A program made the position numbers and the translations under genes. Below are positions 4,432 through 37,634 of a DNA stretch of 61,017 nt, piece by piece (the first letter of the stretch is position 1; every line of letters starts with the position of its first letter). Under the pieces are notes generated by a model that saw only the letters and a program-made list of their open reading frames with translations, was not told the origin of the DNA and made no database searches. The stretch lies in the IMG/VR virus record IMGVR_UViG_3300002854_000002, positions 1-61,017 of that record. One strand, written 5' to 3'. This DNA is from a virus.

Positions 4432-4481
4432 GTTTGTCGCGGAGATGATGGCGAATTTTATTACGTAGGGGAGCGGATTGG

Positions 4482-4784
4482 ATGACGGATATCGAACGGA
4501 AATTAACACTACCGCAGTTTAGGCGGATACTTCAGGTCGTCGATAAATATCACAGATTCGGCGGATTAAACGAAGCCAACGTGTACACGATTGAGTCCGG
4601 AGAGAAGGTCGCTGTTTACCGTAACATCAAGTATATCCGACCTCAGTACGACACTAGGACGCGTGACATATTCTGCATCACGTTTGATGAAACGGGATTC
4701 GATTTCCGCGATGACCCCGTTAAGACGATGTATGAACGTATATGCGAATGGCTGGCGTGGGACAAATATTGCGAAATGGATTAA
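4482..4784 (+). CDS. Hypothetical protein (100 aa)
   Basis: Intact ORF in the co-directional early operon. Confidence 0.55.
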   Translation: MTDIERKLTLPQFRRILQVVDKYHRFGGLNEANVYTIESGEKVAVYRNIKYIRPQYDTRTRDIFCITFDETGFDFRDDPVKTMYERICEWLAWDKYCEMD

Positions 4785-21755: not shown

Positions 21756-21998
21756 ATGGACCAAAAGCTACGCGATTACCTGACGATTACGGCGTTCGGC
21801 ACATTCGCAGCGGAAACCGATACGGATTTATCCGATATCATAACGCCGGAAGTCGTCGAAGCACTCTGCGTAAAATTCCCCGTTGATATTCCGCAGACGG
21901 CCGAGACTCGCGCGCTATCAACGGAGATTGTCCGCCAGATTGTCCGTGACGCGCTAGAACGGATAACGGAGGTGGCCGCCGATTCCTCCGAAAATTAA
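21756..21998 (+). CDS. Hypothetical protein (80 aa)
   Basis: ATG directly follows the upstream stop. Confidence 0.5.
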   Translation: MDQKLRDYLTITAFGTFAAETDTDLSDIITPEVVEALCVKFPVDIPQTAETRALSTEIVRQIVRDALERITEVAADSSEN

Positions 21999-22506
21999 AG
22001 AACCGACGCTAATCTACGCGGGACTCGATCTATCGCTAACATCGCCAGGATTCGCGGTCGTCTCCGTTAAGGGCCGCGTTCCTACGTTAGTCGCGACGTC
22101 AGTCGTCAAAACTGAAGCAGCCGAGGCGCAACCGCTACGCTACGAGGTAATCGAAGCGCACGCCTTATTATTCTTCCGCCAGTACACGCCGTCATCTGCT
22201 ATCATACGAGAAATATGGCCGCCATCACGTAACTTCGAGCAGAACGATAAAGTTCACGGAAGTTGGAGCGCGGTCGATCGCGCCCTATCCCGCCTTGGAC
22301 TCGTTGTAGCGGAGAGCCTTGCGCCAAGTAGCGTTAAGAAGCTAGTAACTGGAAACGGCCGCGCCGAGAAGCCGGAAGTAGCGGAGGCAGTACGGAGGAT
22401 TTTACGCCTCGGTCCGGATCACGTATTTAAGGCGGGGTATGACGATGCGGACGCATGTGCCGTAGTCCTGGCGTATCTTATCCGCGAAGAGTTGATTTCG
22501 ACGTGA
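21982..22506 (+). CDS. ruvC: RuvC-like Holliday junction resolvase (174 aa), absent from the ORF track, ATT start
   Basis: Hand translation gives 175 open codons: ..LIYAGLDLSLTSPGFAVV...AIIREIW...VKKLVTGNGRAEKPEV...GYDDADACAVVLAYL. The only in-frame ATG/GTG/TTG is TTG 22492, four codons before the stop. SD GGAGGTG 21968-21974 lies 7 nt before ATT 21982. Confidence 0.8.
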   Translation: MPPKIKEPTLIYAGLDLSLTSPGFAVVSVKGRVPTLVATSVVKTEAAEAQPLRYEVIEAHALLFFRQYTPSSAIIREIWPPSRNFEQNDKVHGSWSAVDRALSRLGLVVAESLAPSSVKKLVTGNGRAEKPEVAEAVRRILRLGPDHVFKAGYDDADACAVVLAYLIREELIST

Positions 22507-26534: not shown

Positions 26535-27116
26535 ATGGCAAGGTTAAGCGGAGTTTACGAAACCGGCAACGTAATCGAGTACAACGGTGTGCGTTACGAG
26601 AGTACGGAAGATGACCCGCAAGTCGGCGATATCCTACGTAGCGGAACGCACTACTCATTCATGCCGAAGGGAGCTTTTTACGCAGTCGTAGCAGATAGCG
26701 AAAGTGATAACATCGGCATACTCGATGAAGACGAAACGTTTCTACTGGCCGATGGTGACGATATAGTATTCCGCCGCAACGTGTTAACAACTGCGCAGAT
26801 CATCGAACAAAAACGTGCAGCAGTCGCATCCCTTAACGCTGAAATCGCGGAATTAGAGACGGAAATGGCGGAGGAGTCAGCGCTGAAAGTCGGCGACTAC
26901 GCGCGGTTCGTATCTGGTGGTGACTTCAGCGAAGGAACAATCGTCGTAGTGGATAATACAGACGGACAGCGGCGGTATCCGTATGAGGTACACGCGGCGT
27001 TATGCCCCGAGTTGTCGGAGTACGTTAGCGCAAATCAACTTGAACGCTTAACGCCCGCCGAAGCACGCGCCGCTCTCATCGCGCAAATTGACGCGCTGTT
27101 TCCGGTAAGTCCCTAA
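26535..27116 (+). CDS. Repeat-module protein, paralogous to 14892-16985 modules (194 aa)
   Basis: Two beta-barrel-like modules (the second begins LKVGDYARFV) separated by a coiled coil. Confidence 0.6.
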   Translation: MARLSGVYETGNVIEYNGVRYESTEDDPQVGDILRSGTHYSFMPKGAFYAVVADSESDNIGILDEDETFLLADGDDIVFRRNVLTTAQIIEQKRAAVASLNAEIAELETEMAEESALKVGDYARFVSGGDFSEGTIVVVDNTDGQRRYPYEVHAALCPELSEYVSANQLERLTPAEARAALIAQIDALFPVSP

Positions 27117-27570
27117 CGTTTTAACCGCTGTCCTAGCGTATTTCTCGCTCCTTGCCGCGCTTGTAACGGCCGAGCCGGAGCCGCCCGCATCGAAAGAACC
27201 GACGTGGCATACGTTCGAGGCGACTGAAAAGCAGGGGACGTGGCGGTCTTTCGCGGCCACTGCCTACACGGCTGATTGTCGCGGCTGTACCGGCATTACA
27301 AAAACGGGAGTTAACGTAAAACAGACGCAGTATGACGCATATGGACGACGCATAATCGCGGTTGATCCGGCCGTCATCGCGCTTCATTCGGAAGTCGTCG
27401 TAATGTTGGCGGATGGCTTCACGTTTACGGCGGTCGCGGAGGACATTGGTGGCGCAATTAAGGGATCGCGGATTGACGTATTGACAGCGGATAGGAAGAC
27501 GGCGGAGAGGTTCGGCCGCCAGGACGTACAAATATGCGTAATGGGAGACGATGCGTATGATCGAAGTTAA
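27109..27570 (+). CDS. 3D-domain (MltA-like, YuiC/YocH-type) cell-wall protein with signal-peptide-like N-terminus, no identifiable start codon
   Basis: 154 open codons: ..LTAVLAYFSLLAALVTA..FAATAYTADCRGCTGITKTG...IIAVDPAVIALHSEV...EDIGGAIKGSRIDV...FGRQDVQICV. The first in-frame canonical start is ATG 27403, inside the domain. No ATT/ATC/ATA/CTG and no SD near the 5' end. Confidence 0.6.
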   Translation, partial: VPNVLTAVLAYFSLLAALVTAEPEPPASKEPTWHTFEATEKQGTWRSFAATAYTADCRGCTGITKTGVNVKQTQYDAYGRRIIAVDPAVIALHSEVVVMLADGFTFTAVAEDIGGAIKGSRIDVLTADRKTAERFGRQDVQICVMGDDAYDRS

Positions 27571-29032
27571 ACGTAAAGCAAACGTTGGAGAACGGATTAG
27601 AATCGTAGAGGAAATCAGCGAAGAGGACGCAGTCGGCTACTACAGGACCGGTGATGTTATGACAGTTACAAGCACGGATCGTTGGGGCGACGGTCAAGCC
27701 GTAAGCGTATCTGAGACGAGATGGGCTGTTCTTCACAGCGAGTACGTTGTAATCACGGAGGAGGCGGAGGTTATCGAAGACATTACGGTATTACCGGACG
27801 AATCATTGGGCGGAGTTCAACGCGAATACAACGAGGTTAAACGCAAAGCTAACGTGGGTGAGTGGGTTAAAATAGTAGCGGCTACCGGAGTGGACGAGGA
27901 GACGTACGTAAATGGCGATGTTCTGGACGTGGTTGACACGTGGTCAAACGGTGCAGTCGATACGTCGAACCTTCAGCACGTATTTTTGCGGGAGTATGTC
28001 GTTCTCGAACCATCCGATATCGTCGTTATCAACGGTGAACGCCTGCGCTTAGTCAATCGAAAGGCGGCCGTAGGTGAGCGTATACTATCGCTCGTAGGCG
28101 AAGGTAAATACGGAATTACCAAAGGCAACGTATACAGCGTAACAAGAACGGGAACCAACTCCGGCCACGAAGGCGTAACGGTCACTGACGACAACGGGGA
28201 AAGCCACGGAATTACAACTGAGTTCTATCGCGTTCTCGAACCTGTTTCCGCTCCGTCACCGTCCGTCACGCAACAAATCGACGGCCTGACGGAAGCAGTC
28301 GCGAAATTAACGCTTAAAAACGCGGATCTTGCGCTTCAACTCAAAGTTGCGCGAGAGGACATCGTTTTAATCGAGGAGGGCGTATCTGCGGATATTAAAC
28401 GCCTGGAGGCGGAAGTCGCGGCGTTGAAACGTGTGAAAGAATCCGCTAGGCCGTCCGTAAGTACGGCTGTAACGCGAGACGATATTATCGAACGTGCAAA
28501 ACGGGATGTAGCGGAACTTGTCCGTACTCCTCGCGACATTAACTGGCAGCATCCGCATTTCTGGCCGAAGATTGACGGAGAAAGAACGAATTGGACCCCG
28601 ATGCAGCGCGTAGACTTCGTCATCAACCCTCGAAAGCGGACGGTAGTCGCGATAATCCGGTTCCTTCCTGCATATAGAAACGGTGAAGTGTTCGCGAAAG
28701 GAATCGCCCGCTGCGCGCCGGATGACGTATTCAACTCGCATATCGGCCGCGCTATCGCCCTACGCCGTGCGCTCAGACTGGATGTGCCGCAGGAATACTT
28801 AAAGACTCCGCAGCCTACGGAGGCGCACGTCGGGGATATCGTAACTTTTAACGACCACGACGCAGGAAAAGTGGTATACCGTATCAATACGCTGAACCCG
28901 GCATGTGCGAACTGTACGGTCATACACGATGAGTGGTTCGGAGGTACGGATCACACAGGAGGGCGCGCAGCCGGCGGGGATTTTTCATGGGCGCGTATTA
29001 TCGACGACTCACGCGAGGAGGTGGCGGCCTAA
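27551..29032 (+). CDS. Repeat-module protein (3 N-terminal beta-barrel-like repeats, coiled coil, conserved C-terminal domain), 493 aa
   Basis: EVKRKANVGE(R/W)(I/V)(R/K)IV occurs twice plus a third divergent unit. C-terminus contains KGIARCAPDDVFNSHIGRAIALRRAL. Confidence 0.65.
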   Translation: MRMIEVKRKANVGERIRIVEEISEEDAVGYYRTGDVMTVTSTDRWGDGQAVSVSETRWAVLHSEYVVITEEAEVIEDITVLPDESLGGVQREYNEVKRKANVGEWVKIVAATGVDEETYVNGDVLDVVDTWSNGAVDTSNLQHVFLREYVVLEPSDIVVINGERLRLVNRKAAVGERILSLVGEGKYGITKGNVYSVTRTGTNSGHEGVTVTDDNGESHGITTEFYRVLEPVSAPSPSVTQQIDGLTEAVAKLTLKNADLALQLKVAREDIVLIEEGVSADIKRLEAEVAALKRVKESARPSVSTAVTRDDIIERAKRDVAELVRTPRDINWQHPHFWPKIDGERTNWTPMQRVDFVINPRKRTVVAIIRFLPAYRNGEVFAKGIARCAPDDVFNSHIGRAIALRRALRLDVPQEYLKTPQPTEAHVGDIVTFNDHDAGKVVYRINTLNPACANCTVIHDEWFGGTDHTGGRAAGGDFSWARIIDDSREEVAA

Positions 29033-31802: not shown

Positions 31803-32487
31803 ATTTGCTGTTTATTGCTAGTTTCTCGATGAGCTTAGACCCGGAATTTTTCACGTTGCCGACATCTTTGCTCACGGCATAGCGCGTCATCTTATCGGCA
31901 GGATACGGAGCGAGCAGCGATTGCAGCGTCTCTTTATCCGTGGTTTCCGGATCTAGCCACGTATCAACGGCATCACTCGGCAAGATGACCGGCATACGAT
32001 CATGCACGTCTTTTACGAGGTCGTTTGGCGTCGTTGTTATGATCGTACAGCTCCGTAGTAGCTCACCGTCCGGCTGCTTCCATTCGTCCCACAGTCCGGC
32101 GTATCCGTAAGGCGATTCGTCTTTCAACGTGAACCGATACGGTTGTTTCTCCGCGCCTACTTTTTGCCATTCGTAAAATCCGTCGGCCGGTATAACGACG
32201 CGGCGGCTTTTTAACAATCGCCCATAAGCCGGCTTTTCCGCGACCGTCTCCGCCCGTGCGTTAATCATTTTAAATCCGATTTTTACGTCCTTCGCCCAGA
32301 AGGGTACGAGACCCCAACGGAAACCGTCGATCACTCGGCGGCCGTCATCGTTTAATATGACTGGCACCGTATGCGTCGGAGCTACGTTATAATTCGGCTT
32401 ATATTCGTATCGTATATCAGCGCTATCGATGGCGAATAAATGAATTAGTTCTTCGATATCTACATAAATCGTGTATCGTCCGCACAT
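31801..32487 (-). CDS. SOS response-associated peptidase (SRAP / YedK-HMCES family)
   Basis: Begins MCGRY (Cys2 nucleophile) when started at ATG 32487, which has GGAGGTG 6 nt upstream. NVAPT, WGLVPFW and NARAET motifs. Confidence 0.9.
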   Translation of the reverse strand: MCGRYTIYVDIEELIHLFAIDSADIRYEYKPNYNVAPTHTVPVILNDDGRRVIDGFRWGLVPFWAKDVKIGFKMINARAETVAEKPAYGRLLKSRRVVIPADGFYEWQKVGAEKQPYRFTLKDESPYGYAGLWDEWKQPDGELLRSCTIITTTPNDLVKDVHDRMPVILPSDAVDTWLDPETTDKETLQSLLAPYPADKMTRYAVSKDVGNVKNSGSKLIEKLAINSK

Positions 32488-32596
32488 TTCGAACACCTCC
32501 ACGTTATCTATACCCGATCATAGTACGATTTGAGCCCGAATTACACTGGAAATTATTTTCCTGTATACGAACGATAATTCCCGTCATATAATAATT

Positions 32597-36390: not shown

Positions 36391-37634
36391 GGCGCGGTTT
36401 ATAGCGTTTCTCTCTTCTTATCCCTTAGAAATAACGGATTAAAAGCGAACCGCTGCGGCAAAGAACGCCTAACGGACATTTCGGGACAAAAGGCGTGTCC
36501 CTCATGTAACAATTTATTCAACGTTAGAATTAAACGTTAAAGACGGCCACGTTGTAAATTATCCGGATACGGCCCGGTTTTGGCCGGATTCGAGCAAGGC
36601 CGCTCTTTGGCCGCGTTAGGCTCTTAGGCTCCCGACGATTCAATATGAATCAACGTGAGCAAACGTAATAGAAACGAAGTCGATACCGGATGTTAACGTT
36701 ATAGCTGTAAAGTAACGATTCGGTAACGCATATTCAACGTATAAAACAGCGCTCCTTATTAGAAGCGTAATATTAGCGTGTATTAGCGTTGGGATTCCGA
36801 AAAGGTATATGCGGTTACCAGCGGAAATGTAAGGCGATTTCCCTTACTAATTCAACGTATATACACGGTGCTGAGACGGTGGTAACGTAGTGGTAGCGTA
36901 TAACTACCGCTCTAACGTACGTTTATACCCAACAGAACGCACGGAGCGTACAGCCCTCGGAAACATCGACCCTGTGACGCTTCACCACGATAAAGTGGAT
37001 TGGATCACGTAAATGTCCGTTTGTCAAGCGTTTTCTCTGGAAAAATATCGTACGATTGCGAATGTATATTTATACATATCCGAAATGTCAAGCGTTATTT
37101 TTAAAACGTTAAGAATCCCGTAACCATGCGGCTTTTCAGCGAATGTATATCGTATGCATAACGTTACAAACCGATGTGAGATACGAACCCAGTAACGGCG
37201 CGGATTTCCGGACGAGACATATGTACAAAACTCGTACTTTATTCGTATGTCAACGTATATTTATGCATACTTCTACGCTTTATCGCGGTGAAGTACTGCG
37301 CTGTATCGCGTTAAAGTAAGACGCTTCATCACGTTAAAGCAACGCACTTTAACGGAGTACAGCGTTAAGGGGGCGGGGTGGTCAGCGCGAGGCCGCCGGA
37401 TCTGACGTCCGAACCTTTGCGCCAGATTTCGTAACCTCGGGGTCGAAACGTAGTCGCGCACTGTTAAAATTTTTCGCTACAATTTCGGAGACTCCGGGAC
37501 CAAACGGTAGCGCTTCGTATAAATCACGTAAGAATCACACGGAATTAGCCGCGCCAGCTATCCGGAGGTATAAACGGTCCAACTCAGTATCCAAACGCTA
37601 ATTACACGTATTTTACACGTAAGGAGGACGCTAT
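36391..37634. other. Gene-free, repeat-dense region upstream of terS (candidate pac/cos and late control region)
   Basis: No credible ORF in about 1.25 kb. Repeat families: CAACGTATA / GAATGTATAT (5 copies), AATGTCAAGCGTT (2), TATTAGCGT (2), CGTTAAAG in both orientations (4), and several inverted repeats. Confidence 0.6.

Follow-up and report, generated by a model that had tools for sequence, protein, structure and literature searches.

How a gene without any recognisable initiation site might be translated is the question raised by a locus in the virus record IMGVR_UViG_3300002854_000002, whose whole stretch of 61,017 nucleotides (nt) was analysed and is here called the window. An open frame coding for a 3D-domain protein, of a kind presumed to cleave cell walls, begins inside the tail of an upstream gene (gene A) with neither a start codon nor a Shine-Dalgarno (SD) sequence, and the original prediction, made from the sequence, was that ribosomes might reach it by a +1 frameshift at the CCC TAA with which gene A ends. 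Our tentative preference is for this reading: the 3D domain would be expressed by +1 slippage as part of a fusion of 344 amino acids (aa) comprising A, a membrane anchor and the 3D domain, and we put the probability of this at roughly 0.45.

Direct reading places a TAA at 27106-27108 in the 3D frame, followed by GTC CCT AAC GTT TTA ACC GCT GTC CTA GCG and a frame that stays open to 27570, which confirms the coordinates, the codons, the open frame and the +1 relation to the upstream gene as originally given. That the frame encodes a clear 3D domain also holds, with all invariant residues present: the Pfam 3D family (PF06725) matches residues 82-144 (27352-27540) at E=1.6e-11 (44.7 bits, the cut-off being 23.8). 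A search with a family profile retrieved YuiC of B. subtilis (4wlk, 4wjt) at E=7e-11 and, weakly, MltA; a single-sequence search of the PDB with the window protein gave no match. In the family alignment all 24 invariant columns are kept in the window protein, D86, D112 and D123 among them, and deviations occur at two of the 35 highly conserved columns, the family mean being 1.96. The closest database homologues are about 60% identical, stand-alone and 110-165 aa long. The segment in front of the domain, described in the original prediction as signal-peptide-like, is indeed hydrophobic, but a classical signal peptide it probably is not: because a positively charged n-region is absent, it is better described as an anchor-like transmembrane segment. 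The frame in the window is intact, and is predicted to encode a membrane-anchored 3D-domain (YuiC/MltA-like) protein with a presumed role in cell-wall cleavage. Since the invariant residues are all present and divergence at the conserved columns is no greater than in relatives, the intact frame argues against long neutral decay.

What the frame lacks is a place to begin. A script finds its first ATG, GTG or TTG at codon 99 (ATG 27403) and its first ATA, ATT, ATC or CTG, an ATT, at codon 63 within the domain; the program that lists open reading frames (ORFs) reports for this frame a 55-aa ORF from ATG 27403 and nothing else. Initiation at that ATG was rejected, as it would yield half a domain without D86. 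An SD was sought before every codon from 27088 to 27118 and none was found, the duplexes with the anti-SD ranging from -1.1 to -3.1 kcal/mol against -9.7 kcal/mol for the ATG of gene A at 26535. The original prediction that the frame has no possible start and no SD is therefore upheld, and since codon 63 is the earliest that is canonical or near-cognate and the SD duplexes reach -3.1 kcal/mol at most, the known rules exclude de novo initiation.

To place this in its family, the 3D frame was located in all fetched loci, about 100 of them unique, and traced upstream to the in-frame stop (loci of relatives carry L numbers, L010-L070 being from IMG/VR). The window is the sole locus in which the hydrophobic segment is preceded by neither a canonical nor an ATH codon (ATA, ATC or ATT), and an SD is missing there as well; L005 and L044 were flagged as start-less by the hydropathy cut-off alone, and on inspection have ATA and ATC respectively. 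The best comparator is L058, which shares both gene A and the junction with the window. Its sequence there is TTG ACG CTA TTT TCG AAG GTG CCC GTC CCT AAC, where the window has TTG ACG CGC TGT TTC CGG TAA GTC CCT AAC; relative to L058 the window is thus short of 3 nt and of the GTG, and a TAA has appeared in frame; the TTG at 27088 aligns with an in-frame TTG of L058, whose frame runs open into the 3D gene. A little further on, AAC GTT ATA ACC GCT in L034 stands against AAC GTT TTA ACC GCT in the window. On these alignments the initiation region of the window's 3D gene has been lost, and a TAA in frame now stands two codons ahead of the conserved Asn. Two candidates for a surviving start were considered and discarded. 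The TTG at 27088 has an SD duplex of +1.9 kcal/mol and hence no ribosome-binding site, and readthrough of the TAA at 27106 from this codon fails on the lack of an SD and on the negligible rate of UAA readthrough. As for the GTC, its position is occupied by an ATC in L028 and L031, but both loci are better accounted for by an ATA that overlaps the upstream TAG.

The relatives start the gene in several ways. More distant 3D genes, from other metagenomes, begin with ATG behind a strong SD; ATG is also found in L002, L003 and L169, and ATC, ATA or ATT in most other relatives. Around the window, a conserved N-terminus (x-N-V/I-I, then a hydrophobic helix) often lies upstream of the first ATG, GTG or TTG. 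When close pairs of relatives are compared, 25 of the 43 differences in this hydrophobic segment are at third codon positions, and because the differences fall mainly there the segment must be translated. The arrangement GGAGG, 7 nt, ATC is seen in L074 and L075, and AAGGAGG, 7 nt, ATC in L179, where the SD duplex reaches -16.4 kcal/mol. An ATA inside an ATAG or ATAA overlap is found in L005 (the same sequence as the prophage of Paenibacillus sp. BIHB 4019), L006, L008 and L028, and a TAATC overlap in L165, L181 and L182. Members of the GILTN/TIGLL clade have ATC as the codon following ...GAGGAGGTG TAA GC in 25/25 distinct contexts, with neighbouring codons drifting at their third positions. 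In this SPbeta-like clade an ATG, GTG or TTG precedes the ATC by 11 codons, but it was rejected as the true start, since in the upstream gene that overlaps it the base concerned is the third of its codon and varies by synonymous drift. A simple automated score that takes the candidate with the best SD (duplex of -7 kcal/mol or stronger), a rough classification, chose ATH in 36 unique loci of the window's group and a canonical codon in 4, against canonical codons in 9/9 of the distant set.

Relatives translate 3D from a weak site of its own, consisting of a strong SD and AUC, AUA or AUU (less often GUG or AUG) at or overlapping the upstream stop, and its expression appears to be kept low through these AUH starts. 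The window falls outside this class, since its hydrophobic segment is preceded by no ATC, ATA or ATT, be it one with a strong SD in front or one that overlaps the stop of the gene before it. Gene callers systematically miss starts at ATC, ATA and ATT, and because initiation is at these codons the 3D genes in databases are truncated or given false upstream starts; the 3D gene of Paenibacillus sp. BIHB 4019 (L178, CP016808) is called as 110 aa. Conserved initiation at ATC, ATA or ATT, in the phage 3D family and in a RuvC gene of the window described below, is the more secure new result of this work.

Some loci depart from the pattern. L034 (2983-3000), L043 (~2941-2958), L166 (~4479-4500), L013 and L048 have a good SD, but GCA, GTT or CTA at the expected start, with the nearest ATH at least 3 codons further on and a spacing of 16-19 nt; the CTA of L013 and L048 aligns exactly with the ATG of L002 and L169. 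In L044 (2866-2883) A and 3D lie in one frame with a single TAA between them and an ATC four codons past the stop. The frame relation of A to 3D varies among relatives, being -1 in L005, L006 and L166 and zero in L044; +1 also occurs.

If ribosomes do not initiate in the 3D frame, they would have to arrive in it from gene A, and the place at which they could do so is narrowly defined. Within 27080-27130 the contig reads ...CCGGTAAGTCCCTAACG..., and gene A ends CTG TTT CCG GTA AGT CCC TAA (Table 1). Because the 3D frame, +1 relative to gene A, is open jointly with it over 27109-27116 (8 nt) and nowhere else, any frame change would have to fall on AGT CCC TAA, and there CCC to CCU is the one step that would permit a tRNA to re-pair; CCU would then be read as Pro, the next codon being AAC at 27115-27117. 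A +1 slip at CCC is the only documented mechanism able to bring ribosomes into the 3D frame. The locus has the sequence features of CCC shifty stops, namely CCC followed by a zero-frame stop with CCU in the +1 frame (AGT CCC TAA C, 27108-27117), together with a long +1 coding frame, the 8-nt overlap and the lack of an initiation site of its own, and its T_CCC_UAA_Y is identical in form to the slip site of phage SPP1, with which it is compared below. Of the Pro codons in the window CCC is the least used (46/576, 8%), as it is in SPP1, and gene A is the sole frame ending in CCC plus stop among 77 plus-strand frames. TCCCTAAY is shared with three relatives, in which the upstream gene is dUTPase (L001), ThyX (L009) or A (L058). 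The single start-less locus is therefore one of 4 TCCCTAA loci among about 100, a coincidence with a chance of about 0.04 if the two features are independent, which mildly favours frameshifting. Pattern scans of IMG/VR (TCCCTAA followed by W..ATAY, at three spacings) recovered only the L009 and L058 contigs and two unrelated sequences, a RelE-like toxin locus and one random match, and hence no additional true case.

Table 1. Features of the locus, numbered from the first letter of the window
Feature	Position	Strand	Remarks
Gene A, 193 aa	26535 (or 26529) to 27116	+	Zero frame of the proposed shift; own good start
Short 3D-frame stretch TTG ACG CGC TGT TTC CGG TAA	27088..27108	+	Direct reading
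3D-domain open frame	27109..27570	+	153 sense codons and TAA stop (27568-27570)
T_CCC_TAA_C, candidate +1 shifty stop	27110..27117	+	CCC 27111-27113 (P site), UAA 27114-27116 (A site)
Hydrophobic anchor-like segment NVLTAVLAYFSLLAALVTA	27115..27171	+	Alignment and hydropathy scan; starts with the family's conserved N-V motif
3D (MltA/YuiC-like) catalytic-type domain	27241..27540	+	Conserved W45 to end of Pfam match
Gene B, 493-aa repeat protein	27551..29032	+	20-nt overlap with the 3D stop; conserved downstream partner

Under the slippage reading, ribosomes at the end of gene A would pause while the rare CCC holds peptidyl-tRNAPro and UAA occupies the A site, and a fraction would re-pair on the overlapping CCU and continue into the 3D frame. 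The product would be the 344-aa fusion A(1-193)-NVLTAVLAYFSLLAALVTA-3D domain, with the junction peptide ...FPVSPNVLTAV... that the original prediction correctly derived from the frames. The hydrophobic segment, now internal, could serve as a signal anchor that leaves A inside the cell and 3D outside. We infer that slippage would occur at a useful rate and that the fusion would insert into the membrane and be active. A yield of a few percent would be within the low-expression range of the family, because relatives appear to be tuned low via AUH starts. A search for promoters and terminators between A and 3D gave nothing above background, and the two look co-transcribed; a search of the window for phage tRNAs found none. 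That fusions within the A-3D-B module are tolerated is indicated by the occurrence of in-frame fusions of 3D to the downstream gene B, with an anchor, 3D and B uninterrupted by a stop, in L165 (4563-6269) and in L181 and L182 (both from ~2100 on); this suggests also that 3D and B act together.

A number of observations weigh against slippage. UAA is a normally efficient stop, and the contig comes from a metagenome, so that a defective variant is possible. In each of the other three TCCCTAA loci a start or near-cognate codon lies no more than about 10 nt from the end of the upstream gene (ATC or GTG in L001, ATC in L009, GTG in L058); given these candidate starts, codons for (V/I)-P-N that happen to overlap a stop would be enough to account for the motif. 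The argument from coincidence is weakened further in that the locus was first flagged partly for the motif itself. Stimulators were looked for on both sides of the site: RNA structure in the 90 nt downstream is no better than in shuffled sequence (z=0.31), and upstream an SD-like element is absent, CCGGTAAGT pairing with the anti-SD at -3.1 kcal/mol or weaker. Nor have close relatives come to light that might display the same arrangement, whether by blastn and tblastn against GenBank phages or by searching IMG/VR with the protein and an exact 26-mer; look-ups of the exact protein likewise returned no close relative, its sequence cluster being a singleton, and the best match in a scan of metagenomes was 52% identical. 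In related genomes the arrangement is not conserved, most having independent starts and other frame relations, and no in-frame A-3D fusion occurs in any relative or in the protein database. The 3D gene is moreover dispensable in some relatives, as L167 has A directly followed by B and L170 is without both A and 3D. Comparison of orthologous loci, proposed at the outset as a test, has gone against the frameshift at the level of the family, in which relatives have independent 3D starts and no CCC-TAA; because A-3D frame relations vary and relatives start independently, the sequences lend no support to programmed frameshifting as a conserved trait of the family.

A narrower form of the idea is that in the subclade with V/I-P-N (the window, L058, L009 and L001) T_CCC_UAA_Y is a selected coupling device, by which ribosomes from whichever gene lies upstream (A, ThyX or dUTPase) slip +1 and yield small, fixed amounts of an anchored 3D fusion, the window relying on the slip alone. 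This we regard as unlikely. If true, such coupling would sit in a family that otherwise throttles the same gene by AUC, AUA or AUU starts.

The most serious alternative to slippage, though in our judgement a somewhat unlikely one, is that the 3D gene has been freshly silenced. Where it overlaps the tail of gene A, recombination or the loss of a few nucleotides would have taken the SD and the weak start and made the TAA, the frame would not yet have decayed, and any frameshift product would be noise. A pseudogene was among the alternatives raised originally. It would account for the absence of both SD and start in a gene for which every relative has an initiation site of its own, and the window does read as a version of L058 shortened by 3 nt and given a nonsense codon, with TTA where L034 has ATA. 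A single deletion or recombination would be enough, the gene is one that L167 and L170 do without, and the source is a lone metagenome contig. Silencing is harder to square with a flawless frame of 153 codons that is as conserved as those of functional relatives. The intact state following inactivation would be brief, whereas the branch that separates the window from its nearest relative (~60% aa identity) is long, and phage genomes usually delete dead DNA. It would also be left to chance that the only start-less locus is among the four carrying a proven type of shift site.

Improbable, in our view, is an independent start, or a restart by ribosomes that have just terminated on gene A, from a non-standard codon near the stop (GUC 27109, GUU 27118 or UUA 27121), from which a stand-alone protein of about 150 aa would be made at a very low level. 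The family's habit of weak non-AUG starts coupled to the upstream stop (ATAG, ATAA, TAATC and the invariant ATC) lends this some appeal, as do the alignment of the window's GTC with the ATC of L001 and of its TTA with the ATA of L034, and the RuvC gene of the same phage starts at ATT. Against this, GUC, GUU and UUA are each two positions off AUG and are not known initiation codons, and the weak starts of relatives are always ATA, ATT or ATC, usually behind a strong SD, whereas here an SD is absent.

Least probable of all is an assembly or sequencing error, or a strain chimera, that conceals either a normal start or a fusion of A and 3D in one frame (as CC in place of CCC would give). The sequence is indeed a single metagenome contig (61,017 nt) of the Joint Genome Institute (JGI), no second copy is recorded, and the site has a short C run. 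However, L058 has exactly the same 9-mer, GTCCCTAAC, and L001 and L009 have the same TCCCTAA, which supports the length of the C run phylogenetically and makes the 1-nt indel considered in the original prediction unlikely. Gene A ends in Pro-stop as it does in L058, so that its frame is correct as far as the stop; A homologues are all 193-208 aa and never continue in frame into 3D; and long genes elsewhere in the window are intact.

The genes on either side of 3D place it in a recognisable module. Homologues of gene A in the protein database, 193-208 aa in length, are stand-alone without exception. An AlphaFold model of protein A (26535-27113), with a mean predicted local distance difference test (pLDDT) score of 86.7, comprises two SH3/KOW-like beta-barrels with a 30-residue helix between them and a C-terminal helix; a structure search returned weak SH3-like matches only, including SPbeta YorP (2heq), and comparison of folds gave no functional connection to cell walls. 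Gene B belongs to PHROG 17910 (E=8.7e-59), a family without assigned function, and its protein (27551-29029) has short repeats (KRKANVGERI...) that resemble protein A. The order in the contigs of relatives is ribonucleotide reductase (RNR), dUTPase, ThyX, optional A, 3D, repeat protein B and deoxynucleoside monophosphate (dNMP) kinase. The original prediction held a murein-hydrolase-like gene to be unusual at this position, which it is not: the gene is syntenic in related phages and prophages, and tblastn finds 3D homologues in 381 phage records. Because the prophage relatives sit in genomes of Paenibacillus, Cohnella and Brevibacillus, the host is probably a member of the Paenibacillaceae.

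A second gene of the window bears on the use of weak starts. A RuvC-like resolvase (PHROG 159, E=1e-21) at 21967-22506 has no ATG, GTG or TTG until codon 176 of its 179-codon frame; directly after an in-frame TAA it has an ATT at 21982, 6 nt past the strong SD GGAGGTGG. This gene is very likely AUU-initiated, and a standard gene caller would miss it. Weak starts are a design feature here, and plausibly serve to keep down the amounts of enzymes that could do harm. ATG, GTG and TTG are likewise absent from two other open frames of the plus strand, counted from stop to stop, at 32361-32591 (76 codons) and 37353-37601 (82 codons).

Should slippage be confirmed, a +1 shifty stop would here replace the initiation of a separate downstream gene, as opposed to adding a C-terminal extension, and an exported enzyme of the cell wall would be tied to a cytoplasmic protein, a purpose for which CCC_UAA recoding is not known to be used. 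The comparative result is independent of that outcome, in that a widespread phage 3D family is routinely mis-annotated. This matters for phage annotation and for understanding how phages hold a potentially dangerous wall hydrolase at very low dosage.

How, then, does this locus compare with systems already described? As a protein, it resembles YuiC and the Sps/MltA-like and YorM-like phage proteins in its 3D domain, conserved Asp residues and N-terminal hydrophobic segment; it differs in being a small phage version encoded in a nucleotide-metabolism module without a start of its own, its activity and topology being predicted. With respect to attenuation by rare starts, bacterial infC starts at AUU. 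The 3D relatives and the RuvC gene of the window are similar in using ATT, ATC or ATA behind a strong SD, presumably for low expression, whereas the window 3D gene is without even such a codon. A Firmicute precedent for an ATT start is ebpA of Enterococcus faecalis (PMC4447247).

Among recoding sites, the original prediction took prfB as its model. The two are alike in a +1 shift at a sense codon with an in-frame stop next and C after it, but prfB has CUU_UGA_C, an SD-like element 3 nt upstream and feedback by RF2, and the window has none of these; what stands of the prediction is the slip from CCC to CCU over a stop as the only documented route, and what falls is its assignment to the prfB type, there being no SD-like stimulator, UAA in place of UGA and no release-factor logic. 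CCC_UGA is the classic +1 shifty stop, generally reaching up to ~2% and 15% in E. coli pheL, and CCC_UAA is used in phages Q54 and SPP1 (PMC3082878); the tsh genes of Listeria phages A118, A500 and PSA have (AAA)CCC_UGA (PMC5009743). In tsh and pheL, as would be the case here, a P-site tRNAPro slips +1 on CCC beside a stop, but that stop is UGA where the window has UAA, and pheL is boosted by a penultimate Phe where the window has Ser.

The tail tube gene of SPP1 offers the nearest parallel. At 17.1/17.1* a +1 slip at CCCUAA gives gp17.1* about once in four, the two products standing at ~3:1 (PMC6316719), and the SPP1 record reads GCT CCC TAA T at this site. Both sites are T_CCC_UAA_Y with a rare CCC overlapped by CCU and with Pro-Asn first after the shift; in both the host is of Bacillales type and a stimulator is not obvious. 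They differ in what the shift would achieve. In SPP1 it adds a non-essential FN3-like extension to a structural protein, with both products made at a fixed ratio, while in the window, whose arrangement is not conserved in relatives, it would join two separate genes and be the sole source of the downstream protein. In mechanism the closest known system is thus SPP1 17.1/17.1* and not prfB.

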